The notes beneath the pieces are model-generated. The model saw only the letters and a list, made by a program, of their open reading frames with translations. It did not search any database and was not told the DNA's origin. Made by a program: the position numbers and the translations under genes. 32,000 nt of DNA from Tomitella fengzijianii (GTDB lineage: Bacteria; Actinomycetota; Actinomycetes; Mycobacteriales; Mycobacteriaceae): the NCBI RefSeq assembly GCF_007559025.1, contig NZ_CP041765.1, forward strand, positions 212,679 through 244,678. The letters run 5' to 3'. Position 1 is the first letter of the stretch; every line of letters starts with the position of its first letter. Of the stretch, positions 11,993-23,399 are shown in pieces.

Positions 11993-12853
11993 TCATTGCC
12001 GGGCCCGCGCGAGGATTTCCGTCGCCAGCCGCGCCGGCGCCTCCTCGGGAATCCAGTGGCCGATGCCCTCCAGCGGCACGAACAGGTAGTCGGCGGTCAC
12101 GTACTCGCCGCACGCCTCCGCGCCCGTGCGCCCCAGCGCCACATCGTCGGTGCCCCACACGTACGTGGTGGGCACGTCGACCGGCGGCAGCTGCGACATC
12201 TCCGGGGTCATGGCGCGGTACCAGTTCAGGGCGGCGACGATGCCCTCGGGCGTGCCGAGCCGGCGCAGGTGCGCGTCGATCAGGTCGCGGGGTACCGCGT
12301 CGCCGAACACGTCGCGGAAGCGCCGGGCGTCGTCGGCCAGCAGCGCCTCCTCCGCCCGGCCTTCTTCCCGGAACACCTGCATGTATTGCGACTTGCGGCG
12401 CTGGTCCGGGTCGTTCTTCAGCGCGCTGCGGAACGCCGCAAGGTGCGGGACCGAGACGGCGATGAGCGTGGCGACCCGCCCGGGGTGCCGCGCAGCGAGG
12501 GTCCACGCCACCGAGGCGCCCCAGTCGTGCCCGACGACGTGCGCGCGGCCGGCCCCGAGGCGGTCGAGGATCCCCAGCGCGTCGGCGACGAGGCGGTCGA
12601 TGCGGTAGTCCTCCACCGAAGAGGGGCGCGCGCCGGGGGAGTACCCGCGCTGGTCCGGTGCGATGACGCGCAGTCCCGCGGCGGTGAGAAGGGGTGCGAC
12701 CGCCCGCCACTCGTCGTACGACTCCGGGAACCCGTGCAGCAGCAGCACCGGCTCGCCGTCCTCGGGCCCGGCCACGGCGACGTCGAAGGTGTGCTCGCCG
12801 ACGGGGATCCGCCGGATGTCGGTGAACGGGGCGGGGGTGTGCGTGTCAGTCAT
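11993..12853 (-). CDS. alpha/beta hydrolase (epoxide-hydrolase/dehalogenase-like, Asp nucleophile)
   Basis: Motifs HGFPES and the nucleophile elbow GHDWG, plus a C-terminal GIGHW His motif. The start was trimmed to ATG 12853 (MTDTHTPAPF). This is the intact copy of the gene whose 5' part is duplicated at 15015-15386. Confidence 0.85.
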   Translation of the reverse strand: MTDTHTPAPFTDIRRIPVGEHTFDVAVAGPEDGEPVLLLHGFPESYDEWRAVAPLLTAAGLRVIAPDQRGYSPGARPSSVEDYRIDRLVADALGILDRLGAGRAHVVGHDWGASVAWTLAARHPGRVATLIAVSVPHLAAFRSALKNDPDQRRKSQYMQVFREEGRAEEALLADDARRFRDVFGDAVPRDLIDAHLRRLGTPEGIVAALNWYRAMTPEMSQLPPVDVPTTYVWGTDDVALGRTGAEACGEYVTADYLFVPLEGIGHWIPEEAPARLATEILARARQ

Positions 12854-12871
12854 GCCCGGGATTGTGCCTGC
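12482..12871. repeat. direct repeat R1a (hydrolase 5' coding region plus 18 bp upstream)
   Basis: Ungapped hand alignment with 15015-15404 at constant offset 2533. I counted about 31 mismatches in 390 positions. Confidence 0.9.
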
Positions 12872-12902
12872 AGCCCGGCGGCCCCGCCCCATGTTTCGTG
12901 CG

Positions 12903-13244
12903 TCAGCCGATCCACGCGTCGTCGAAGAGCATGATCTCGTCGAAGGTGACCTTGACGCCGTGGACGTCGCTGCGCCACACGTCGAGGTTCGGGGACGCCC
13001 CCCAAGGCTGCCACGGCAGTGTCTCGTTCATCCGCTGCTGGATCCGGGTGAGCACGTCTTTCTTGGCGGCGTCGTCGGCGGCGGCGCCGTCCGCCCGGAT
13101 GCCTGCCCGTGGTGTCTCCCGGCCGGAGAACGCATGCTTGAGGCGGCGCCACAGGTAGACGACTCGCCTGCCTCTGCCGAGAGCGGCACGTACGGTCGAA
13201 CGGGTACGGGCGGGTGCCGGTCGTGCCGGCGCAAGATATGCCAT
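12903..13244 (-). CDS. small chimeric ORF: 54-aa Arg-rich N-terminal module shared with the vanY-like gene, fused to an unrelated 59-aa C-terminus
   Basis: 113 codons, MAYLAPARPAPARTRS...ADGA then AADDAAKKDVLTRIQQRMNETLPWQPWGASPNLDVWRSDVHGVKVTFDEIMLFDDAWIG. The C-terminal part has host-like high GC3. The N-terminal 185 bp is 183/185 identical to 15902-16086. No recognised family; expression is uncertain. Confidence 0.4.
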   Translation of the reverse strand: MAYLAPARPAPARTRSTVRAALGRGRRVVYLWRRLKHAFSGRETPRAGIRADGAAADDAAKKDVLTRIQQRMNETLPWQPWGASPNLDVWRSDVHGVKVTFDEIMLFDDAWIG

Positions 13245-13266
13245 GCCGCCACTCAAGGCGAAGTGG
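13082..13266. repeat. direct repeat R2a (185-bp 5' module)
   Basis: Line-by-line comparison with 15902-16086 at offset 2820 shows only two differences (13137 c/t, 13164 t/g). Both fall on third codon positions and are synonymous in the MAYLAP frame. Confidence 0.95.
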
Positions 13267-13287
13267 TTCCAGAGCCACTGCCACGCG

Positions 13288-13306
13288 CTGTAGTAATCCG
13301 CTACAG
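13288..13306. promoter_or_regulatory. inverted repeat CTGTAG-n7-CTACAG, candidate antitoxin operator overlapping a TANNNT -10 (TACAGT, 13302-13307)
   Basis: Perfect 6-bp arms seen directly. It ends 7 nt before the antitoxin ATG, so the -10 position would give a leaderless or near-leaderless transcript. Any function is inferred. Confidence 0.4.
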
Positions 13307-13313
13307 TAGGGGT

Positions 13314-13670
13314 ATGAAGACGATGCCGACTCGCATTGACGATGCGCTGTTCACTGCGGCGAAACAGGCCGGCCAGCTGCACAGCCGCAGCGCCGCCCAG
13401 CAGATCACCCACTGGGCGTACCTCGGCCGCGCGCTGGAAGTAGAGGGATCGACGAGTACCCGCACGATCGAGCAAGTCCTCACTGGCGAGAAGTCCTACG
13501 ACGACCTCGACCCCCCGAGCCAGGCGGCGGTGCGCGCCGTGTGGGATGAGCGGATCACCGATCGCATCGCTCGCCTCAACCTGGCGGACGAGTTCACCGC
13601 ACACGGCGAAACCTGGTCCGAGGCCGACGCTGACGGCACTGTCGTCGAGCGCACCACCAGCAGCACGTGA
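13314..13670 (+). CDS. ParD-like type II antitoxin
   Basis: 118 aa, MKTMPTRIDDALFTAAKQAGQLHSRSAAQQITHWAYLGRALE...SYDDL...VRAVWDE. This matches the ParD-like antitoxin family pattern I recall (RHH-like N-terminus). Its stop overlaps the next gene's start (GTGA). Confidence 0.7.
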   Translation: MKTMPTRIDDALFTAAKQAGQLHSRSAAQQITHWAYLGRALEVEGSTSTRTIEQVLTGEKSYDDLDPPSQAAVRAVWDERITDRIARLNLADEFTAHGETWSEADADGTVVERTTSST

Positions 13671-14236
13671 GCACCCCCGTCCTGCATCTGCTGGCAGGAC
13701 CGAACGGGGCGGGAAAGTCGACGTTCGTCGAGCGTGTGCTGCAGCTTGCGACGCACCTGCCGTTCATCAACGCCGATCACATTGCTGCAGCCCGCTGGCC
13801 CGGCGACGAGGAAGCGCACGCATACGACGCATCGCAGGCGGCTGCCACAGAACGCGCCGCACTGCTCGCCGCACGGCAGTCGTTCATCAGCGAGACGGTG
13901 TTCAGCCACGACAGCAAGGTTGCCCTCGTCGAGAACGCCACGGCCCACGGCTATGTGGTGGACCTGCACGTGATCGTCGTCCCCGTCGAGCTCACGGTTG
14001 CGCGTGTCGCCGAGCGGGTTCGCCGCGGCGGGCATTCCGTGCCCGACCGGAAGATTCGGGAACGCTACCAGCGGTTGTGGCCGTTGGTCGCTGCCGCCCG
14101 GACGACGGCTGAGCGCACCACGCTGTACGACAACAGCACGGCGCACGACCCGTTTCGCGTGTTCGCCACCTACCGCTGCGGCGAGCTTGATGGGAGCGGG
14201 GTGTGGCCGGCGTGGGCGCCCCCCGAGCTGCGGTGA
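13667..14236 (+). CDS. zeta-toxin-family P-loop kinase (COG4185-like), putative toxin
   Basis: 189 aa with Walker A GPNGAGKST, the INADHIA Asp segment, SETVFSH, and the highly typical RVRRGGHSVPDRKIRERYQRLW block. It shares a 4-nt overlap with the antitoxin gene. Confidence 0.75.
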   Translation: MSTPVLHLLAGPNGAGKSTFVERVLQLATHLPFINADHIAAARWPGDEEAHAYDASQAAATERAALLAARQSFISETVFSHDSKVALVENATAHGYVVDLHVIVVPVELTVARVAERVRRGGHSVPDRKIRERYQRLWPLVAAARTTAERTTLYDNSTAHDPFRVFATYRCGELDGSGVWPAWAPPELR

Positions 14237-14344
14237 GTACCACTGTGCCAGGCGCGGGACACACTGCCCGGGGTGATGGCGCTCGTTGATTCTCCCCAGT
14301 AACGCTCACTGAAATTCCCCACCGGTGTGGCTCCGCCAACGAGG

Positions 14345-14405
14345 GCGGGTCTCCCCGGATGCTGGTGGTCTCTGACCACGCACCAGTACTCCGAAGGAGA
14401 CCCGC
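14345..14405. other. nested hairpin (10-bp outer stem GCGGGTCTCC/GGAGACCCGC enclosing GTGGTC-tct-GACCAC)
   Basis: Outer arms lie at 14345-14354 and 14396-14405; the inner hairpin is 14365-14370/14374-14379. It is about 110 nt downstream of the toxin stop. It could be an intrinsic terminator or a structured RNA or site; there is no U-tract. Confidence 0.3.
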
Positions 14406-14710
14406 TTTCTCATGCTGGAATGGGAGGAAGACGGGGATGCACACGCACTACGCAATCGTGGCTGGACGATCTCCGCGATCGCCCCCGGTGGCGGCGGCGG
14501 TTCGTCGCTCGTGCCCTCCGGCGGCACCGGCCCCACCGTGAGCGATGCGGCCCCGTCGGTGACGATCGCCTATTCCACTGCACCCGAGCCCGGGTGCACG
14601 GGTTCGCTGTGCAGCCTCTTCGGCAGCCTCACCAGATCCCGCTCTGGTGCCGGAAGCTGATCAGCCGCAGGTGAGTCCGGCGGGCGCGACCGGCGTGTGC
14701 GCCCGCCCCA

Positions 14711-15015
14711 GCCTCACTCCTCGACCAGCGCGAACACCCGCGCCGGGCTGCCGGTGCCGCCGACGATGGGCAGGGGCGCCACCACGAGCACCGCGCCGGA
14801 GGCGGGCAGCTGCGCCAGGTTCTGCAGCGAGGTGACCCCGTACTTGTCGTGCCCCAGCAGGTGGTGGTGGGCGGGGAACGGCGGCTGGAATTCGGCCGCT
14901 CCGTCGCCAGCCACTCGGCCGCTTCGGCGGTGAGTCCGGGTGTGTGCGAGCCGTTCTCGTCGGCGTTGAGGAACGCCTCCTGATCGTCCGAGTACTTCCC
15001 CCACCCGGTGCGGAG
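14711..15015. repeat. direct repeat R3a (cyclase 3' fragment)
   Basis: Aligns with 20820-21176 at offset 6109, then 6161 after a 52-bp deletion at 14894/14895. About 8 substitutions by hand count. Confidence 0.9.
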
Positions 15016-15386
15016 GGGTGTCGCGCGGCGAGGGTCCAGGCCACGGACGCGCCCCAGTCGTGCCCGACAACGTGCGCGCGCCCGGCCCCGAAGTGGTCGA
15101 GGATCCCCGCGGCGTCGGCCACGAGTCGGTCGATGCGGTAGTCCTCCACCGCTGGAGGGCGCGCGCCGGGGGAGTACCCGCGCTGGTCGGGCGCGATGAC
15201 GCGCAGCCCCGCGGCCGCGAGCAGAGGTGCCACCGCCCGCCACTCGTCGTACGACTCCGGGAACCCGTGCAGCAGCAGCACCGTCTCGCCGTCCTCGGGG
15301 CCGGCCACGGCGACGTCGAAGGCGTGCTCGCCGACGGGGATCCGGCGGATGTCGGTGAACGGGGCGGGGGTGTGCGTGTAACTTAT
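14714..15386 (-). pseudogene. chimeric pseudogene: alpha/beta-hydrolase N-terminal 124 codons fused out of frame to the cyclase C-terminal fragment
   Basis: The hydrolase-derived part (15015-15386) has its start codon changed from ATG to ATA (plus-strand tat at 15384-15386 versus cat at 12851-12853). The junction falls after the ...AARHP codons at 15015. The cyclase-derived part (14714-15014) is out of frame and carries a 52-bp deletion. Confidence 0.9.
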
Positions 15387-15404
15387 GCCCGGGATTGTGC
15401 CTGC
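15015..15404. repeat. direct repeat R1b (hydrolase 5' fragment)
   Basis: Partner of 12482-12871; see R1a. Confidence 0.9.
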
Positions 15405-15467
15405 GCTGGTCCGGCGGCGCGTGTGATCCGGGCGGATCCTCGGCCGGGCGCGTGCCGTGAGCGCCGG

Positions 15468-16064
15468 TCAATGCTGCATTCTCGGGTCGTGCGTGGGGTC
15501 GGCGTACATCGGAGGACGACCGTGGACGATGGCCTCCGGGCGCAGTTCGTAGTGCCAGGGCTCATTGGCGTAGACCTGGCACAGCCCGTACCTGGCGCCG
15601 TGTTCGGACAACCACGCCGTGGCTTCGGCGGGCCCGAGGTCGACGGCGTCCCCCGATACGTGTGCAGACGTTCCGGGGGTGGCCACCAGCCGGGCGGCCT
15701 TCCGTTCCGAGCCGTGCGTCCAGACCGCCTCGAGAAGCAGCCGCTCCTGGTATTGCGGGGAACGCCAGCCGCTGTTGACGACGAACCCGACCCCATCGAC
15801 CGCGGCATCGGAGGCGGCATCGCGGAGGGCGCCGAGAAGAGCAGCATCCAGGTTGGTCACGGCCGGAAACCCGTCGTCGAAGACCGTCACGTTCGCGGGG
15901 ACGGCGCCGTCCGCCCGGATGCCTGCCCGTGGTGTCTCCCGGCCGGAGAACGCATGTTTGAGGCGGCGCCACAGGTAGACGACGCGCCTGCCTCTGCCGA
16001 GAGCGGCACGTACGGTCGAACGGGTACGGGCGGGTGCCGGTCGTGCCGGCGCAAGATATGCCAT
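15468..16064 (-). CDS. vanY: VanY-like M15B D-Ala-D-Ala carboxypeptidase (no hydrophobic anchor)
   Basis: 198 aa. The catalytic domain carries VNSGWRSPQYQ, the zinc-site motif TSAHVSGDAVD, and NEPWHYE. The start is ATG 16064; the rest of the track ORF (to 16514) is antisense to vanR. The N-terminal 54 aa is the shared R2 module. Confidence 0.8.
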   Translation of the reverse strand: MAYLAPARPAPARTRSTVRAALGRGRRVVYLWRRLKHAFSGRETPRAGIRADGAVPANVTVFDDGFPAVTNLDAALLGALRDAASDAAVDGVGFVVNSGWRSPQYQERLLLEAVWTHGSERKAARLVATPGTSAHVSGDAVDLGPAEATAWLSEHGARYGLCQVYANEPWHYELRPEAIVHGRPPMYADPTHDPRMQH

Positions 16065-16086
16065 GCCGCCACTCAAGGCGAAGTGG
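15902..16086. repeat. direct repeat R2b (185-bp 5' module)
   Basis: Partner of 13082-13266 (183/185 identical). Confidence 0.95.
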
Positions 16087-16087
16087 C

Positions 16088-16130
16088 GTTGCCAGCCCGT
16101 ATTCGCTTTTCGATATGTCGGCGATATCCA
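16088..16130. promoter_or_regulatory. conserved van promoter element, copy B (vanY/vanR divergent region), with direct repeat CGATAT-n5-CGATAT
   Basis: GTTGCCAGCCCGTATTCGCTTTTCGATATGTCGGCGATATCCA aligns ungapped with 20710-20752. The hexamers at 16111-16116 and 16122-16127 are 11 bp apart. A TANNNT motif (TACCCT, 16139-16144) sits 7 nt before the vanR ATG. Confidence 0.5.
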
Positions 16131-16151
16131 CGGTTCCGTACCCTGGGGGCC

Positions 16152-16829
16152 ATGCGCGTTCTGCTCGTCGAGGATGAGCCCTTCATGGCGGAGGCCGTCC
16201 GTGATGGGCTGCGACTGGAAGCGATCGCCGCAGACATCGCCGGTGACGGCGACACTGCCCTGGAGTTGCTGGGCGTCAACGACTACGACATCGCCGTGCT
16301 CGACCGGGACATCCCGGGTCCATCCGGTGACGCGATCGCCCAGCACATCGTGGCCTCCGGCAGCAGTATGCCGATCATCATGCTCACCGCCGCCGACCGG
16401 CTGGACGACAAGGCTTCGGGGTTCGAGCTCGGCGCCGACGACTACCTGACGAAACCCTTCGAACTCAGAGAGCTCGTGCTCAGGCTCAGGGCGCTCGACC
16501 GCAGACGTGCCCACAACAGGCCGCCCGTGCGTGAGATCGCGGGCCTGCGCCTGGATCCGTTCCGCCGCGAGGTCTACCGTGACGGCCGGTACGTCGCGCT
16601 CACCCGCAAACAGTTCGCCGTGCTCGAAGTCCTCGTCGCCGCCGAAGGCGGGGTGATCAGCGCCGAAGAGCTACTCGAGAAGGGATGGGATGAGAACGCC
16701 GACCCCTTCACGAACGCGGTGCGAATCACAGTCTCAGCGCTCCGTAAACGGCTTGGCGAGCCCTGGCTGATCGCCACCGTCGCCGGCGTGGGGTATCGCA
16801 TCGACACGGCCACCACCAGCGATCGGTAG
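16152..16829 (+). CDS. vanR: OmpR-family response regulator VanR
   Basis: 225 aa beginning MRVLLVEDEP, with receiver Asp in AVLDRDIPG and a winged-helix C-terminus (LTRKQFAVLEVL...VGYRI). It lies next to VanS and the vanHAX genes. Only the last 225 codons of track ORF 15018-16829 are used. Confidence 0.9.
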   Translation: MRVLLVEDEPFMAEAVRDGLRLEAIAADIAGDGDTALELLGVNDYDIAVLDRDIPGPSGDAIAQHIVASGSSMPIIMLTAADRLDDKASGFELGADDYLTKPFELRELVLRLRALDRRRAHNRPPVREIAGLRLDPFRREVYRDGRYVALTRKQFAVLEVLVAAEGGVISAEELLEKGWDENADPFTNAVRITVSALRKRLGEPWLIATVAGVGYRIDTATTSDR

Positions 16830-16838
16830 GGCGCGGCG

Positions 16839-17930
16839 GTGGTCAGAGCACGCGGTTTGAGTGTGCGCCTCAAACTCACCCTCAGCTACGCCGGGTTCCT
16901 CATGCTCGCCGGCGTCCTGCTGCTCGGAGCGGTGTTCGTGTTCCTCCTGAAGTACCAGGAGATCGGCATTTCGAGATCCGGCGTGGTGATTTCACCGCCT
17001 GGCACCGTCCTGATCCGCGCCTTCGCGCCGACCGCGGGAATCGTGCTGGCGTGTTTGCTGGTGTTCGGCCTGGTGGGAGGCTGGCTGCTGGCCGGACGGA
17101 TGCTCTCGCCGCTGAACCGCATCACCGCCGCCACACGTACGGCCGCGACCGGGTCGCTCGCCCACCGGATCCGGCTCCCGGGGCGCCGTGATGAGTTCCG
17201 TGAACTCGCCGACGCCTTCGACGCCATGCTTGCCCGGCTCGAAGCGCAGGTGGCCGAGCAGCAGCGCTTCGCGGCCAATGCCTCGCATGAATTGCGCACC
17301 CCGCTCGCGGTCACGCAGACGCTTCTCGATGTGGCGCGCAACGATCCGGATCGCGACAGCGGCCGGCTGATCGAGCGCCTCCGCGCCGTCAATGCCAGGG
17401 CGATCGACCTCACCGAGGCATTGCTGCTCCTGAGCCGCACGGACCAGCGGTCCTTCGTCCGGGAAACCGTCGATCTGTCCCTTGTCGCGGAGGAAGCCGC
17501 CGAGACGCTTCTCCCGCTCGCAGAGAAGCGTGACGTCACCGTCGAAACCTCCGGCGACGTGGCTCTCGCGTCCGGCTCGCCGGCGCTCTTGCTGCAGATG
17601 GTCACCAACCTGGTGCACAACGCGATCGTCCACAATCTCCCTCAGAGTGGAACTGTCCGCGTCACAACCAGCGTTCACCCCGGCAGCGTCGTGCTTGCCG
17701 TCGAGAACACCGGCGACAAACTCACCCCGCAGATCGTGGCCACGCTCGCCGAGCCGTTCCAGCGCGGCAGCAGCCGCATCCGCGACGACCACGCAGGTAT
17801 CGGCCTTGGCCTGGCCATCGTGAAGAGCATCGTGCAAGCGCACGACGGAACTCTCACCCTGGCGCCTCGAACCGCGGGCGGGCTCTGCGCCACAGTGCGA
17901 CTACCCGACCCGCGATACACCGGAAGCTGA
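16839..17930 (+). CDS. vanS: sensor histidine kinase VanS
   Basis: Two N-terminal TM helices flank a ~27-aa loop, followed by a HAMP-like linker, H-box ASHELRTPL, N-box LVHNAIVHN, and G-boxes ENTG and GIGLGLAIV. The GTG start is 10 nt after the vanR stop. Confidence 0.9.
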   Translation: MVRARGLSVRLKLTLSYAGFLMLAGVLLLGAVFVFLLKYQEIGISRSGVVISPPGTVLIRAFAPTAGIVLACLLVFGLVGGWLLAGRMLSPLNRITAATRTAATGSLAHRIRLPGRRDEFRELADAFDAMLARLEAQVAEQQRFAANASHELRTPLAVTQTLLDVARNDPDRDSGRLIERLRAVNARAIDLTEALLLLSRTDQRSFVRETVDLSLVAEEAAETLLPLAEKRDVTVETSGDVALASGSPALLLQMVTNLVHNAIVHNLPQSGTVRVTTSVHPGSVVLAVENTGDKLTPQIVATLAEPFQRGSSRIRDDHAGIGLGLAIVKSIVQAHDGTLTLAPRTAGGLCATVRLPDPRYTGS

Positions 17931-17991
17931 CGATCCGAGGAGCCTCCGGCTCGGCCCGCGTCGACCACCGCCGAGGTCCAGGAGACTCCGG

Positions 17992-18600
17992 TCATGTGAT
18001 GGGGAAGTCGAAGTAGGCATCCGGATGCGGCTCGTTTCTCAGGGTGTAGTGCCACCATTCGCAGTCGTAGCGGTCGAATCCGCAGCCTTCCATGATGGAA
18101 CGGAGATGCTCGCGATGAGCGGTCTCGGCTCGCGTGATCTCCCGGGCTCGATGCCGTGAAATCGGGTCCATGAGGTCGTGGCCGCCGCCCATGGAAACCA
18201 GCTCGCCGGTGTCGAGGTGATAGAGCGTCAGGTCCACGGTGCTGCCCCTGCTGTGGCCCGACCTGGTGGCCACATATCCGTGCTCGATCATCTCCGCCCG
18301 GTCGATGTGCGGGTAGTGGCGCAGTTTGGTCCGGCCGTCTTCCGGCTGCTCGGACCAGCGGATGAAGCAGTCGACCGCGCGCTGGGGGCGATATCCGTCC
18401 CACAGAAGCAGCCCGAAGCCACGCGCGGCCGCGTTCTCGTTTGCCTGCTCCAGAGCCGTGCACAGGGCCCGGGTGCCGACAATGCGATTCGCAAGATAAC
18501 CGTCTACTGGCTTGCCGGTGAAGTTGTCCCACGTCGCGTACTTGGCATCCCAGCGTATTCCGGGCACCAGCGCGTCGATGTAGAGGAAGTCGTCGTTCAT
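17992..18600 (-). CDS. vanX: D-Ala-D-Ala dipeptidase VanX (M15D)
   Basis: 202 aa with motifs YATWDNFTG, LLWDGYRP, SGHSRGSTVDLTL and CEWWHYT. Its ATG overlaps the ligase stop (ATGA). Confidence 0.95.
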   Translation of the reverse strand: MNDDFLYIDALVPGIRWDAKYATWDNFTGKPVDGYLANRIVGTRALCTALEQANENAAARGFGLLLWDGYRPQRAVDCFIRWSEQPEDGRTKLRHYPHIDRAEMIEHGYVATRSGHSRGSTVDLTLYHLDTGELVSMGGGHDLMDPISRHRAREITRAETAHREHLRSIMEGCGFDRYDCEWWHYTLRNEPHPDAYFDFPIT

Positions 18601-19637
18601 CGTCGACCGCCGTCCAAAGCCGCGGAGATGAGACTGTCTATGAGAGCGGACGGCGGGACTCCTGCGGCGGCCATCATCCGCGGGTACCGGCTGTAAGAAG
18701 TCATGCCGGGCATCGTGTTGACCTCGTTGAGCACCACTTGCCCGTCATCGGTGAGGAACATGTCGACACGGGCGAGCCCCCGGCAACCGAGAGCCCGATA
18801 GATGGCCTTGGCGGCATCTTGCACGCGTTGGCGCGACTCGTCGGAGATGTCGGCGGGAACGATGAAGGTCGAGTTCTCCGATCCCGTCTCCGGGGAGCTC
18901 TCTTGGTGGATTCTGAAGAATCCGTGCGTGAGGTCGACGCGGTCCACCTCGCCCGTGATCACGCTGAACCGGTCTCCGAGGACTGCGCAGCCGATCTCGT
19001 CGCCGGCCACGGCCTCCTCGACCAGGACTCTCGAGTCATACTGGCGCGCTGCGCGCAGCGCGATCGGAAGGTCTTCCGCCCGAGTGACTTTGCTGACCCC
19101 GAAAGAGGAACCGGAGCGGGCGGGCTTCACGAAGACGGGATAGCGGATACAGCCGGATTCGACCTTGTCGTCCGCCGTGACGACCCGGAAGCGAGGGGTG
19201 GCGATCCCCGCGCTTGTGGCGACGGTGTAGGCCAGCGACTTGTCCATGCACACGGCCGAGCTCTGGATGTCGCAGCCGACATAGGGGATGCCGGAGAGTT
19301 CCAACAGGCCTTGGATCGCGCCGTCCTCACCGAGTTTGCCGTGGAGCAGAGGGAAGACGAGGTCGAGATGCAGCGCCTCGTAGCCGTTCCGCCCCATCAC
19401 GAGCAGGCCGTGCACGCTTCGGTCGGGCGACAACATCGCGCGGCGGGTGCTGCCCTCCTCCCAGCCCGCCACAGGGCCGTCGCAAAGTCTCCACTCGCCG
19501 CCTGTCGTGATGCCGATCCAGAACGGTTCATAGCGTGCAAGGTCGAGGTTGCGGGCGATCTCGCGCGCTGACTTGACGGAGACCGCATGCTCTTCGGATA
19601 CGCCGCCGAAGAGAATTCCTACCCTCAGTCTCCTCAT
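18597..19637 (-). CDS. vanA: D-alanine--D-lactate ligase (VanA-type; allele type not determinable here)
   Basis: 346 aa, collinear with enterococcal VanA as I recall it: ILFGGVSEEHAVSVKSA, LHGKLGEDGAIQGLLELSGIPYVGCDIQSSAVCMDKSL, YPVFVKPARSGSSFGV, FFRIHQE..PE.GSEN, LGCRGLARVDMFL, NEVNTMPGMTSYSRYPRMMAAAG. The start was trimmed to ATG 19637, which overlaps the vanH stop (ATGA). Confidence 0.95.
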   Translation of the reverse strand: MRRLRVGILFGGVSEEHAVSVKSAREIARNLDLARYEPFWIGITTGGEWRLCDGPVAGWEEGSTRRAMLSPDRSVHGLLVMGRNGYEALHLDLVFPLLHGKLGEDGAIQGLLELSGIPYVGCDIQSSAVCMDKSLAYTVATSAGIATPRFRVVTADDKVESGCIRYPVFVKPARSGSSFGVSKVTRAEDLPIALRAARQYDSRVLVEEAVAGDEIGCAVLGDRFSVITGEVDRVDLTHGFFRIHQESSPETGSENSTFIVPADISDESRQRVQDAAKAIYRALGCRGLARVDMFLTDDGQVVLNEVNTMPGMTSYSRYPRMMAAAGVPPSALIDSLISAALDGGRR

Positions 19638-20686
19638 GGTGTCTTCTCGCTTTCGAATTCCACGCAGTTGGTGAGGCTGTTCTCGATCGTGTCTTTCAGC
19701 GCGTGATCGGTGTAATAGGCGCAGTGCGGGCTGATCAGCACATTCGGCAGAAGTTGAAGCCGCAGCAACGCGTCGTTCTCGATCGGCTTGTTTCGGCGAT
19801 CGGCGTAGAAGATCCCTTCTTCGCCTTCGAGGACGTCCAGAGCTGCGCCGCCCAACTTGCCGCTCTCCAGCGCGTGGAGGAGGGCTTCGGTGTCGAGCAG
19901 GCACCCGCGGCCGGTGTTGATGATGTATGCGCCGGGCTTCATCAGCTCGATGCGTCGACGATCGAGTAGATGGTGTGTTTCCGCGGTGAGCGGGGTGTGG
20001 AGGGTGACGATGTCGCTTTGCGCGATCAACTCGTCCAGTGGTACGTAGTCGACGTCGGGGTGACGCTGGCAGTCGTGGGCCAGTAGGCTGCTGCCGAAGC
20101 CTTGCAGTCGGTCGATGACCGCTGTGCCGATACGGCCTGTTCCGATCACCCCGACGGTCAGATCGCGTAGCTCCTTACCGCGGGTCGCGCCCAGCCGGTA
20201 GTCATGAACATCCGCGCGACGGATGCTGGATTTCGCGTGGCGCACGGTCATCAGCGTCACCATCAACGTGAAGTCGGCCACGCTGTCCGGCGAGTAGGCG
20301 ACGTTGCCGACCGAGATGCCGAGGCGCCGGGCGTGTGCCACGTCGAGGTGGTTGTAGCCGATGCTCCTGGTGGATATGTATTCCACACCGGCTCCGCTCA
20401 GCGCCAGGAGCGTGGCATCGGTGATCCGGTTCTTGTGGTTCACGCTGATGCATCGGCTGCCACGCGCCAGCGCAGCGTTGGCCTCACAGGCTGGTGCCTC
20501 GGTCACGGTCAGCGACACTCCGAGACGGTCCCCCGCGTCTCGGAACAAGACGGCTTCCTCGTCGCCGCACCCGAAGACTGTGACCTCGGTCGTCGCAAAT
20601 GCCGACGGGCGTCGCTCGGCCATGCCTCGGACTCGACGGCCCGTCATCGCGCTGCTGTGGACCAGATCCGGTTCGGTATTGGGCAT
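19634..20686 (-). CDS. vanH: D-lactate dehydrogenase VanH (D-isomer 2-hydroxyacid dehydrogenase)
   Basis: Collinear with VanH: ITVFGCG, YISTRSIGYNH, VAYSPDSVADFT, GVIGTGRIG, DIVTLHTPL, INTGRG, GKLGGAALDVLEGEE, SPHCAYYT. The start is uncertain. ATG 20686 was chosen because it aligns with the vanY-like ATG in the conserved upstream element. Alternatives are 20698 (TTG), 20647 and 20623. Confidence 0.9.
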   Translation of the reverse strand: MPNTEPDLVHSSAMTGRRVRGMAERRPSAFATTEVTVFGCGDEEAVLFRDAGDRLGVSLTVTEAPACEANAALARGSRCISVNHKNRITDATLLALSGAGVEYISTRSIGYNHLDVAHARRLGISVGNVAYSPDSVADFTLMVTLMTVRHAKSSIRRADVHDYRLGATRGKELRDLTVGVIGTGRIGTAVIDRLQGFGSSLLAHDCQRHPDVDYVPLDELIAQSDIVTLHTPLTAETHHLLDRRRIELMKPGAYIINTGRGCLLDTEALLHALESGKLGGAALDVLEGEEGIFYADRRNKPIENDALLRLQLLPNVLISPHCAYYTDHALKDTIENSLTNCVEFESEKTP

Positions 20687-20709
20687 GGCCCAAGTCAAGG
20701 CGACGATGT

Positions 20710-20752
20710 GTTGCCAGACCGTATGCGATTTTCAATACACGGACGATATGCC
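20710..20752. promoter_or_regulatory. conserved van promoter element, copy A (upstream of vanH)
   Basis: GTTGCCAGACCGTATGCGATTTTCAATACACGGACGATATGCC. The core 27 nt differs from copy B at 4 positions. On the vanH strand it contains TACGGT (TANNNT; plus-strand coordinates 20718-20723) and hexamers CAATAC/CGATAT spaced 11 bp apart. Confidence 0.5.
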
Positions 20753-20819
20753 GCTGAGTCGTGTCAACGCGGCGGCCTCGTCGAGGCTTGCCGTGCAGGG
20801 CATCCGATCTGCGTCGGCC

Positions 20820-21176
20820 GCCTCACTCCTCGACCAGCGCGAACACCCGCGCCGGGCTGCCGGTGCCGCCGACGATGGGCAGGGGCGCCACCACGAGCAC
20901 CGCGCCGGTGGCGGGCAGCTGCGCCAGGTTCTGCAGCGAGGTGACCCCGTACTTGTCGTGCCCCAGCAGGTGGTGGTGGGCGGGGAACGGCGGCTGGAAC
21001 TCGGCGGCCTTGCCCGCGTCGATGCCCACGGTGTCCACGCCGATGCCGGAGATCGGCCGCTCGGTAGCCAGCCACTCGGCCGCCTCGGCGGTGAGTCCGG
21101 GTGTGTGCGAGCCGTTCTCGTCGGCGTTGAGGAACGCCTCCTGATCATCCGAGTACTTCTCCCAGCCGGTGCGGAG
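20820..21176. repeat. direct repeat R3b (3' end of the intact cyclase gene)
   Basis: Partner of 14711-15015. Homology starts only 3 bp beyond the cyclase stop codon. Confidence 0.9.
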
Positions 21177-21590
21177 CAGCAGCCACCCGTTCTCCGGCAG
21201 CCGCCCGTGCTCGGCCTCCCAGGCTTCGATGCGCGGCACGTCGATGAGGAAGTCCGGGTCGTTCTCCACCTCCGCGCGCACGTCGAGCACCACCGCCGGG
21301 CCGACGAGCCTGGGCAGTCCGATGCCGGCGACGTCCTTGCCCTCGCGCCCGGTGATCCAGTGCACGGGTGCGTCGATATGCGTGCCGATGTGCTCGCCGG
21401 TGCGGATGTTGTGGTGCTTCCAGAAGGGGCCGGGCTCGTTGTAGGCGCTGACCTCTTCGAGGCTGAAGTCGATGAGGTTGGAGAACGGCTCGGGCAGCCG
21501 CAGCGTCGGCGTGCCGGCCGACAGCGTGTTGGTCAGGTCGATCATCCTGATCGCCCCGCGGTCGAGGGCGGAAAGCAGTTCGGTGAGCAT
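20823..21590 (-). CDS. cyclase-family hydrolase (kynurenine formamidase / isatin hydrolase family)
   Basis: 255 aa with the metal-binding motif HIGTHIDAPVHW (HxGTHxDxPxH). ATG 21590 is preceded by GAAGGGA. The track ORF extending to 22484 overlaps the ThDP gene in another frame and was trimmed. Confidence 0.85.
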   Translation of the reverse strand: MLTELLSALDRGAIRMIDLTNTLSAGTPTLRLPEPFSNLIDFSLEEVSAYNEPGPFWKHHNIRTGEHIGTHIDAPVHWITGREGKDVAGIGLPRLVGPAVVLDVRAEVENDPDFLIDVPRIEAWEAEHGRLPENGWLLLRTGWEKYSDDQEAFLNADENGSHTPGLTAEAAEWLATERPISGIGVDTVGIDAGKAAEFQPPFPAHHHLLGHDKYGVTSLQNLAQLPATGAVLVVAPLPIVGGTGSPARVFALVEE

Positions 21591-21649
21591 GGTCTGTCCC
21601 TTCGTTGCGATGATGGTCCGTGCCGACGGCGCCGCTGCCGGAGACCCCG

Positions 21650-23296
21650 CTACCCCTCGGCCTTGAACGCGTCGGCGAGCCACCAGGACGGCGCCGAGTC
21701 CGCCACTTTGATGTCCACCAGCAGCGGCGTGTCCCGCGGGCCGGACAGCCATGCGGCGACCGCGTCCAGGTCGCCTTCCTCGCGCACGGTGGCACCGGTG
21801 AACCCGTACCCGCGCCCGACCGCCGCGAAGTCGACGTCGGGGAAGGTGACGAAGCCGTCGTCGCCGTCGGTGCGGCCGAAGTGGTGCACCTCCGCGCCGT
21901 AGGCGGAGTCGTTGTAGACGAGCACCACCATGGGCAGGCCCAGCCGCACCACGGTCTCCAGCTCGGTGGCGCCCATCAGCAGGCCGCCGTCGCCGCAGGC
22001 GGCCACCGTCAGCCTGTCGGGGCGGGCGACGGCATGCCCGATCGCGGAGGCCAGGCCGAGGCCGACGCATTGGAAGGCCTGGCTGAAGCACAGCGAGCGG
22101 GCGTCGGAGATGGTGAGGAACATGCTCGGGTAGCCGAGGAAGTTGCCCGAGTCGACGGCGACGTTCTTGTCGTCGCCGAGCATCCCGTCGAGGGCGATGG
22201 TCGCCGTGCGCGGGTCGATGCGTCCGGGGTTCGCCGACGGCCGGAACGGGACGTCCGGCCACCGGGCGCCGTCGGCGATGCGCTTGCGGTTGGTGCCGGT
22301 GCGCCGCTTGCCGGAGAGCTCCTCCATCTCCGGGATGTGCGCGGCGATGGCGTCGGCGGTGGCGGCCGCGTCGCCGGCGATCTCCAGCTGCACGGGGCGC
22401 TGCAGGCCGAGCCGCGCGGGGGCGTCGTCCACCTGGACCAGCGTGGCCTTCTGCGGCAGCAGGTCGCCGTTGCTGGTGGTCCACCGGCCCAGGCCGCAGC
22501 CGAATGCGACGATCACATCGGAATCGAGGACCAGCTCGGCGGTGAGCGGGCTGGCCAGGTCGCCCATCACGTCCAGGTTGTACGGGTCGCCGTGGAAAAG
22601 GCCCCGGGCGACGGCCGAGGTCGCCGTCAGCCCGCCGGCGAGCCGGGCCAGGTTCAGCAGCTCGTCGCGTGCGTGCCGCGCCCCGCGCCCGCCGATGATC
22701 AGGGGCGCCCGGGCATCCAGCAGCAGCTGTGCGGCGGCCTCGACGTCCGCCGGATCCGGGAGCAGCGGGCGTGCGGCCTGCAGCGGCGGCACCGGGCCGT
22801 CCTCGGGGGACTCCATCGTCTGCACGTCCACCGGGAAGTTGAGCACCACCGGTGTGCGGTCGGCGAGGGCGGTGCGCACCGCCATCCGGACGTCCGCGGT
22901 GGCGGTGTCGCGGGCCACGCGCACCGAGGCGGCACCGACGGCGCGGGCGAGTCCCTCCTGGTCCACGCGGAAGTTGGACAGCCGGTCGCCCGTCGGCGCC
23001 TCCCCGGCGAGCACGATCAGGGGCGTGCCGCTCTTGGCCGCCTCCGTCAGGCCGGTGATCAGGTTGGTCAGCCCGCCGCCCTGGTGCACGGACACCACGG
23101 GCAGCGTGTCGGCCATGCGCGAGTACGCGTCGGCCATCGACACGGCGCCGCCCTCGTGGCGGGCGGAGACGTACGCGGCGCCGCGGTCGATGAGCGCGCG
23201 CGTCACGTGGTAGTTGCCGCTGCCGGCGACGCCGAACACCTGGGTGACCCCGAGGGCGTGGAGCGTCTCGGCGACCCGTTCGTAAACCTTCATCAC
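21650..23296 (-). CDS. thiamine-diphosphate-dependent enzyme (acetolactate synthase / benzoylformate decarboxylase family)
   Basis: 548 aa. The N-terminal Pyr domain reads VFGVAGSGNY...ARHEGGA. The ThDP-binding motif is GDGGLLMGATELETVVRLGLPMVVLVYNDSAYG. Substrate unknown. Confidence 0.85.
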   Translation of the reverse strand: MMKVYERVAETLHALGVTQVFGVAGSGNYHVTRALIDRGAAYVSARHEGGAVSMADAYSRMADTLPVVSVHQGGGLTNLITGLTEAAKSGTPLIVLAGEAPTGDRLSNFRVDQEGLARAVGAASVRVARDTATADVRMAVRTALADRTPVVLNFPVDVQTMESPEDGPVPPLQAARPLLPDPADVEAAAQLLLDARAPLIIGGRGARHARDELLNLARLAGGLTATSAVARGLFHGDPYNLDVMGDLASPLTAELVLDSDVIVAFGCGLGRWTTSNGDLLPQKATLVQVDDAPARLGLQRPVQLEIAGDAAATADAIAAHIPEMEELSGKRRTGTNRKRIADGARWPDVPFRPSANPGRIDPRTATIALDGMLGDDKNVAVDSGNFLGYPSMFLTISDARSLCFSQAFQCVGLGLASAIGHAVARPDRLTVAACGDGGLLMGATELETVVRLGLPMVVLVYNDSAYGAEVHHFGRTDGDDGFVTFPDVDFAAVGRGYGFTGATVREEGDLDAVAAWLSGPRDTPLLVDIKVADSAPSWWLADAFKAEG

Positions 23297-23399
23297 TCGT
23301 ACCCCATCCGCTTATTTCACAGTCTTTTCGTCGTCGGTGCGCAGGCTTCGCCGCTTTCGGCGGTGACCGCCTTCACCGCTGCCGCCGCGTCCCGGCGGG

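Follow-up and report, generated by a model that had tools for sequence, protein, structure and literature searches.

A six-gene van cluster in the chromosome of Tomitella fengzijianii

The subject of this analysis is a van gene cluster, of the kind that remodels peptidoglycan precursors from D-Ala-D-Ala to D-Ala-D-Lac termini, located in the chromosome of Tomitella fengzijianii (Tomitella sp. HY188; NZ_CP041765), an actinomycete of the Mycobacteriales from bat faeces. The whole stretch of DNA that was analysed, 32,000 nucleotides long, is referred to below as the window. Near its middle, adjacent open reading frames (ORFs) encode a VanY-like D,D-carboxypeptidase, the response regulator VanR, the histidine kinase VanS, the dipeptidase VanX, a D-alanine--(R)-lactate ligase and the D-lactate dehydrogenase VanH (Table 1). 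An earlier note, made from the letters alone, had proposed this set of six genes, and the ORF list contains all of them on the strands that the note had given. Its account of the layout was borne out as well: ATGA overlaps at 19634-19637 and 18597-18600, both on the minus strand, translationally couple vanH, the ligase gene and vanX; this operon converges with vanRS, the plus-strand vanS stopping at 17930 and the minus-strand vanX at 17992, so that a gap of 61 nt lies between them; and Pfam scans detected no member of the VanJ, VanK (Fem) or VanZ families among the coding-looking ORFs of the window. The extent that had been proposed for the cluster, 15468-20752, holds for the genes, all six of which lie within 15468-20749, and its right end coincides with that of a conserved promoter module, at 20749 (see below).

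The cluster is a genuine, apparently intact six-gene vancomycin resistance set, and it is already in the public record. Its ligase shares 100% identity with the NCBI entry "D-alanine--(R)-lactate ligase [Tomitella fengzijianii]", and the cluster is annotated in RefSeq. A survey published in 2021 names NZ_CP041765, as Tomitella sp. HY188, as a carrier of vanHAXRS and vanY, and uses "VanYncs-HAXRS_Tt_sp_HY188" as a naming example, in which the label 'ncs' denotes genes not encoded in a biosynthetic gene cluster (BGC) (Andreo-Vidal et al., 2021; PMC8698665). All six translations from the window are letter-for-letter identical to the "Tt_sp_HY188" proteins in the supplement of that survey (6/6). 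Annotated in RefSeq and listed in the survey, the cluster is a catalogued and ordinary find: one further environmental reservoir of vanHAX, in a member of the Mycobacteriales from bat faeces, on record since 2021. What is added here is the start of vanH, a shared promoter module from which leaderless, VanR-dependent transcripts are predicted, the absence of a membrane anchor from VanY, and the recombination-scarred setting of the locus, which documents its horizontal acquisition; none of these additions changes the understanding of glycopeptide resistance.

On its left, the island that holds the cluster (15405-20819) is bordered by a dead 5' fragment of a hydrolase gene, and on its right by the stop codon that ends a cyclase-family gene. 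Its overall GC content is 65.9%, vs. approximately 72% in the flanks, and the GC content at third codon positions (GC3) is 0.80-0.84 in the van genes, vs. 0.93-0.96 in the flanking genes. This lower, foreign base composition points to horizontal acquisition of the island.

Table 1. Features of the van cluster and neighbouring gene fragments in the window.
Feature	Position	Strand	Remarks
vanY-like M15B D,D-carboxypeptidase	15468-16064	-	198 aa from ATG 16064 (predicted start); Pfam VanY PF02557
vanY promoter module	16073-16127	-	inside the 87-nt divergent vanY-vanR intergenic region; one of two pattern matches
TACCCT, TANNNT-type -10-like hexamer	16139-16144	+	7 nt 5' of the vanR ATG; read from the sequence
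vanR, OmpR-family response regulator	16152-16829	+	225 aa; best NCBIfam match VanR-O
vanS, histidine kinase	16839-17930	+	363 aa; two transmembrane segments, HAMP, H-box SHELRTPL; best NCBIfam match VanS-O
vanX, D-Ala-D-Ala dipeptidase	17992-18600	-	202 aa; NF033115; gap-free vs. 1R44
D-alanine--(R)-lactate ligase, VanO-like lineage	18597-19637	-	346 aa; NF000206; His244
vanH, D-lactate dehydrogenase	19634-20686	-	350 aa; VanH models; most likely start ATG 20686
vanH promoter module	20695-20749	-	second of two pattern matches in the window
Dead 5' fragment of alpha/beta-hydrolase gene, left border of the van island	15015-15404	-	92% identical copy of 12482-12871
Dead 3' fragment of cyclase gene	14711-15015	-	copy of 20820-21176 minus about 50 nt; joined to the hydrolase fragment at 15015
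Dead second vanY 5' end	13072-13266	-	54 codons plus 22 nt upstream; 97% identical to 15893-16086

Identity of the encoded enzymes and regulators

The ligase had been described in the earlier note as a D-Ala-D-Lac ligase collinear with VanA, and this description is confirmed by a gap-free alignment to the VanA structure 1E4E over residues 1-343, with the FFRIHQE...GSEN segment present. The best matches in the PDB are VanA 3SE7 and 1E4E. Residue 244 (VanA numbering), which falls within FFRIHQE, is a histidine; as established for VanA, this His replaces the Tyr of the Ddl enzymes. Among the NCBIfam models, the ligase passes the equivalog for D-Ala-(R)-lactate ligases (NF000206) with 584 bits against a cut-off of 550, and scores at most 346 bits on the models of D-Ala-D-Ala ligases and 375 bits on that of VanG. 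VanX, whose zinc motifs had been read as SGHSRGSTVD and EWWHY, carries R71, H116, D123, E181 and H184 in these motifs when aligned, without gaps, to VanX of Enterococcus faecium (1R44), and passes NF033115 with 389 bits against a cut-off of 320. For VanH, the top NCBIfam matches are all VanH models (E ~1e-149), with scores under the curated cut-offs; the protein is 65-74% identical over its full length to the VanH proteins of the relatives, and its gene lies directly upstream of that of the ligase.

The two regulators likewise correspond to what had been proposed. VanR, taken for an OmpR-type regulator, has VanR-O as its best NCBIfam match and is 87-91% identical to the VanR proteins of five VanO-like clusters. 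VanS, taken for a kinase with two transmembrane segments and a short outer loop, shows hydrophobic segments at approximately residues 11-44 and 55-90 with a short loop between them, and is 69-71% identical to the VanS proteins of the relatives.

Two promoter modules and the starts of vanH and vanY

Comparison of upstream regions revealed a 55-nt module, ATATCG-N6-TATNG-AAAA-N2-GNATAC-GGN-CTGGCAAC-N6-TCGCCTTGA, which is matched exactly twice in the 32-kb window, upstream of vanH and of vanY and both times on the minus strand (Table 1), whereas 0 matches are expected (100 shuffles). Both copies end 8 nt before an ATG, that of vanH at 20686 and that of vanY at 16064, and they align with each other position for position. 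In the vanY copy, putative VanR-box direct repeats come first, followed by CTGGCAAC and then by TCGCCTTGA. The module of vanH and its spacing to the start codon are kept in Rhodococcus, Gordonia, Saccharopolyspora, Nocardia and Actinomadura, and the module of vanY also occurs upstream of vanY in Amycolatopsis (locus L089) and in a metagenomic triad of vanRS and vanY (locus L088). OmpR-family regulators bind direct repeats with 11-bp spacing, and the CATATCG repeats of the module, which are spaced by 11 bp, are the obvious candidate for the VanR site.

The downstream end of the module, GCCTTGA(C/G)T-N6-ATG, is found at both vanH and vanY and agrees in sequence and geometry with the vanH and vanK promoters of Streptomyces coelicolor; in the vanH module, the GCCTTGACT-N6-ATG geometry is that of the leaderless promoters of these two S. 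coelicolor genes. In that organism, vanH, vanK and vanR are experimentally documented leaderless genes (PMC3160421, Table 1). By analogy, the vanH and vanY transcripts of T. fengzijianii are predicted to be leaderless and dependent on VanR. The hexamer TACCCT, located 7 nt before the ATG of vanR, suggests a leaderless transcript for this gene too, and a TANNNT hexamer is found at the same distance before vanR in Rhodococcus (TAACAT) and Gordonia (TACCAT). A separate observation concerns the VanO locus of Rhodococcus (L001), which contains a second, inverted module next to vanR (13170-13240) that is not followed by a vanY gene and has no ATG at +8. This extra copy may be what remains of a vanY gene that was lost, or an element for the autoregulation of vanR.

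A generic scan for sigma-70 promoters and terminators over 12400-21700 returned no promoter-like sites, and terminator-like sites were no more frequent than in shuffled sequence. An Rfam scan of the whole window at gathering thresholds found nothing. A riboswitch in a 191-nt repeat (D2) was considered and rejected, D2 being the 5' end of vanY. An exact-string search of the literature for the module found no paper, a result that does not make the module undescribed.

The conserved spacing also bears on the start of vanH. The ATG at 20686 sits 8 nt past the module, a spacing that is equal in all six genera compared, and the resulting 350-aa form aligns over residues 1-349 with the 349-350-aa VanH proteins of Rhodococcus, Saccharopolyspora, Actinomadura and Gordonia. 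Because the spacing of the module is conserved across genera and the protein aligns with its relatives from residue 1, the ATG at 20686 is most likely the start of vanH; the alternatives, the TTG at 20698 (the maximal ORF of 354 aa) and the published start at 20623 (329 aa), are less likely.

A VanY-like protein without a membrane anchor

The product of the sixth gene, which the earlier note had called an M15B VanY-like peptidase, matches the Pfam family VanY (PF02557) with 48.2 bits against a cut-off of 25, in line with that call, and the residues H135, D142, E168 and H171 of its SxHxxGxAxD and ExxH motifs are invariant in an alignment with its relatives (alignment A1). The relatives consist of a short basic N-terminal tail, a hydrophobic helix (ILAALVVVSAALVGVLG), a linker and the catalytic domain. 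The first 22 aa of the Tomitella protein are homologous to that tail, and a search for a hydrophobic segment found no 19-aa window above 1.6 on the Kyte-Doolittle scale. The RefSeq call comprises the 140-aa catalytic domain only, starting at an internal GTG (15890). Because the promoter module lies 8 nt upstream, as in loci L088 and L089, and because the N-terminal tail is homologous to that of the relatives, the vanY start is placed by sequence comparison at the ATG at 16064, which gives a protein of 198 aa. Whichever start holds, VanY should be cytoplasmic. A frameshift as the cause of the lost anchor was rejected, the hydrophobic helix being encoded in none of the three reading frames (0/3); the loss looks like the outcome of deletion combined with divergence.

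Relationship to known van clusters

The earlier note had held that the van type of the cluster could not be decided. The type question can be answered: models and tree identify the cluster as VanO-like, but it misses every VanO-specific cut-off and is without orf2 and murG. In the NCBIfam ranking of the ligase, VanO is followed by VanI, VanA-Sc, VanA-Ao2, VanD, VanM, VanB, VanA and VanF. A search of 5.8 billion proteins for ligase homologues gave, as the nearest non-self sequences, ligases with 76-80% identity from Rhodococcus (labelled VanO by NCBI), Saccharopolyspora, Actinomadura, Nocardia and Gordonia. Neighbour joining places the Tomitella ligase on a long branch inside the VanO-like clade, with a metagenomic sequence as its sister. 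A ligase phylogeny had been put forward in the note as a check, and its outcome agrees with the assignment: the ligase falls inside the VanO-like actinomycete clade and, by model scores, away from the housekeeping D-Ala-D-Ala ligases. Compared over their entire length with the products of five VanO-like clusters that are convergent in the same way, the proteins show 65-91% identity. The cluster of Gordonia is without orf2, and those of Saccharopolyspora and Actinomadura are without murG. Judged by these comparisons, the cluster descends from the VanO-like lineage and would work like its members, with scores short of the specific VanO thresholds.

The likeness to actinomycete clusters, and to the vanO operon of Rhodococcus in particular, had been noticed from the layout, and it is upheld by the loci that NCBI labels VanO, in which vanH-vanO-vanX(-orf2-murG) converges with vanS-vanR. 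Two such loci of Rhodococcus (L001 and L002) share with Tomitella the translational coupling of vanH, the ligase gene and vanX, and the convergence of these genes with vanS-vanR. The ligases labelled VanO are 78-79% identical to that of Tomitella, and against a VanO locus of Rhodococcus the identities are 91% for VanR, 81% for VanX, 78% for the ligase, 71% for VanH and 70% for VanS. The Rhodococcus cluster also shares the vanH promoter module, and has the second, inverted module by vanR mentioned above. The vanO operon has orf2 and murG-like genes 3' of vanX (Gudeta et al., 2014, as described in PMC8698665). Both genes lie past vanX in L001 and L002, whereas in Tomitella only 61 nt separate vanX from vanS. 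Additionally, the Tomitella cluster differs in having a vanY-like gene divergent from vanR and in missing all VanO-specific cut-offs.

The complete arrangement has a counterpart in Amycolatopsis thermalba (L089), where vanHAX, vanSR and vanY occur in the same order and orientations, vanY being divergent from vanR and preceded by the same promoter module. The locus differs in having an extra murG and in that its VanY, which is 63-64% identical to that of Tomitella, retains the hydrophobic N-terminal segment. With the vanRSJKHAX cluster of S. coelicolor, the Tomitella cluster has in common a vanHAX operon of the inducible type controlled by VanRS and the GCCTTGA(N)T-N6-ATG geometry seen at vanH and vanY. 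In contrast to that cluster, it lacks vanJ and vanK and has a VanO-type regulator and kinase, and its ligase scores 558 on the VanA-Sc model vs. 643 on that of VanO. The VanA cluster of Tn1546 shares the five core functions and VanY, its ligase and VanX being collinear with those of Tomitella (1E4E and 1R44, respectively). However, Tn1546 carries a co-directional vanRSHAXYZ set on a transposon, whereas Tomitella has no vanZ, its ligase scores 497 bits on the VanA model against a cut-off of 775, and its DNA is approximately 64% identical to enterococcal clusters. A search of plasmids found no near-identical cluster on any of them, the best match being 75% identical.

Proposed function and competing explanations

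The best explanation of the locus, and one that is very probably correct, is that T. fengzijianii carries in its chromosome an intact, inducible, horizontally acquired, VanO-like cluster for D-Ala-D-Lac remodelling under the control of VanRS. By homology to characterized systems, the membrane kinase VanS would sense the glycopeptide and phosphorylate VanR. VanR-P would then bind the direct repeats of the two near-identical modules and switch on leaderless transcripts of vanH-ligase-vanX and of vanY, and it would probably also activate the vanRS operon from the divergent region shared with vanY. Once induced, VanH would reduce pyruvate to D-lactate, the ligase would form D-Ala-D-Lac, and VanX would destroy D-Ala-D-Ala, while the anchor-less and presumably cytoplasmic VanY would trim the terminal D-Ala from leftover pentapeptide precursors. 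The expected outcome is a pool of peptidoglycan precursors that end in D-Lac and bind vancomycin poorly, and hence resistance.

Several observations weigh against this explanation. The VanO model NF000374 is the best specific match of the ligase, but its score of 643.5 bits lies below the cut-off of 750. VanH falls below each of the curated VanH cut-offs (e.g., approximately 495 bits vs. 540 for the generic model), VanR scores 457 bits on VanR-O against a cut-off of 505, and VanS scores 498 bits on VanS-O, nonetheless its best match, against a cut-off of 720. In VanY, an Arg-rich segment, GRGRRVVYLWRRLKH, lies where the relatives have their transmembrane helix, and the codon statistics of the N-terminal region resemble those of non-coding sequence. 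The MurF enzyme of T. fengzijianii may or may not accept D-Ala-D-Lac. The locus bears the scars of recombination, and these could accompany decay; no data on glycopeptide phenotype, transcripts or precursors of Tomitella were found in the literature searched.

Some of these points would also be expected if the cluster were a silent or decaying relic, acquired once, now caught in a region that undergoes rearrangement, and conferring resistance no more. The dead pieces nearby (the second vanY 5' end and fragments of the cyclase gene, the hydrolase gene and an IS21 element), the loss of the membrane anchor of VanY and the lack of a reported phenotype in the searched literature are all compatible with such a fate. 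However, the six ORFs are open and their catalytic residues intact, both promoter modules are close to the cross-genus consensus, and the translational coupling has been kept, which makes this explanation distinctly unlikely. A far smaller chance attaches to the possibility that the genes are the self-resistance set of a producer of glycopeptide antibiotics. Producers do carry van genes of the VanO-like lineage, and the closest short, anchor-less VanY in the supplement of PMC8698665 comes from the glycopeptide antibiotic gene cluster CA878. Against this origin, the 32-kb window contains no genes for nonribosomal peptide synthetases, P450 enzymes or glycosyltransferases, the flanking genes belong to ordinary metabolism (a permease, a hydrolase, a cyclase, a thiamine pyrophosphate (TPP) enzyme and oxidoreductases), and the survey labels the genes 'ncs', i.e., as not BGC-encoded. 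The least probable explanation, with hardly any chance of being correct, is that the ligase is a housekeeping D-Ala-D-Ala ligase with unrelated neighbours. It can draw on a general family resemblance and nothing more, whereas D-Ala-D-Lac models score 584-643 bits vs. at most 346 for D-Ala-D-Ala models, which excludes it at the level of sequence; His244 takes the position of the Ddl tyrosine, and the gene is translationally coupled to vanH and vanX.

Genomic setting and possible origin of the island

The van island forms part of the second of two tandem units, 12482-15015 and 15015-21176, which share the 5' part of the hydrolase gene (92% identity), the 5' end of vanY (97%) and the 3' part of the cyclase gene (95-99%, with an indel of approximately 50 nt). 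The shared blocks have diverged unevenly, with identities from 92% to 99% (Fisher p = 0.0002). The intact hydrolase gene that bounds the left-hand unit, whose other border is the dead cyclase 3' fragment, occupies 11993-12853 and is longer than its GTG-started version in the ORF list; where this copy has its ATG start (12853), the dead fragment on the minus strand has ATA (within 15380-15404).

Between these borders, the left-hand unit contains the end of a substrate-binding protein (SBP) gene, the second vanY 5' end, a ParD-like/zeta gene pair and the left end of an IS21-family element. The second vanY 5' end is without VanR boxes and is joined to the final 59 codons of the SBP gene of an ABC transporter (12903-13079). 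The resulting ORF of 113 aa (12903-13244, minus strand) has been recorded as predicted protein P0241 and is a chimera of the first 54 codons of vanY and 59 codons of a family-5 SBP; the C-terminus of another protein, P0242 (315 aa), is 92% identical to the SBP part over 59 residues. The gene pair on the plus strand (13314-14236) encodes a ParD-like antitoxin of 118 aa and a zeta-toxin/AAA_33 kinase of 189 aa, with an overlap of 4 nt, and an inverted repeat, CTGTAG-N7-CTACAG, lies just 5' of it. With a GC3 of 0.83, the toxin gene looks foreign, like the van genes. Control of this pair by VanR through the second copy of D2 was considered; because D2 reaches no further than 22 nt upstream of the vanY ATG and does not include the repeat boxes, this possibility was rejected. 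The IS21-family fragment (14274-14484, plus strand) is truncated; it shows 85% identity to IS21 copies from Rhodococcus plasmids and spans the region upstream of istA and the first approximately 70 nt of istA.

When genome contigs were searched with the cyclase protein, no Tomitella genome was among the matches, and the only close match was a contig of 3127 nt (L004) from a metagenome-assembled genome of an uncultured member of the Mycobacteriaceae. This contig is 92-93% identical to positions 20818-23344 of the window, which cover the cyclase and TPP-enzyme genes, and the final 166 nt, which follow the cyclase gene, match neither of the two units. It probably represents a third state of the locus in a related organism.

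The two units fit a tandem duplication followed by divergent decay, and they also fit the integration of a homologous fragment that came from another strain and had been circularised. A more specific reading, tentative and rather unlikely, is that they are the frozen intermediate of an exchange of islands by homologous recombination between strain variants. If true, this would provide a route by which van clusters could move or be replaced in the Mycobacteriales without a dedicated transposon.

At a large distance from the van cluster, and without relation to it, an ORF on the minus strand at 3550-4626 matches family 2 of the bacterial archaeo-eukaryotic release-factor-like proteins (baeRF) with 87 bits.

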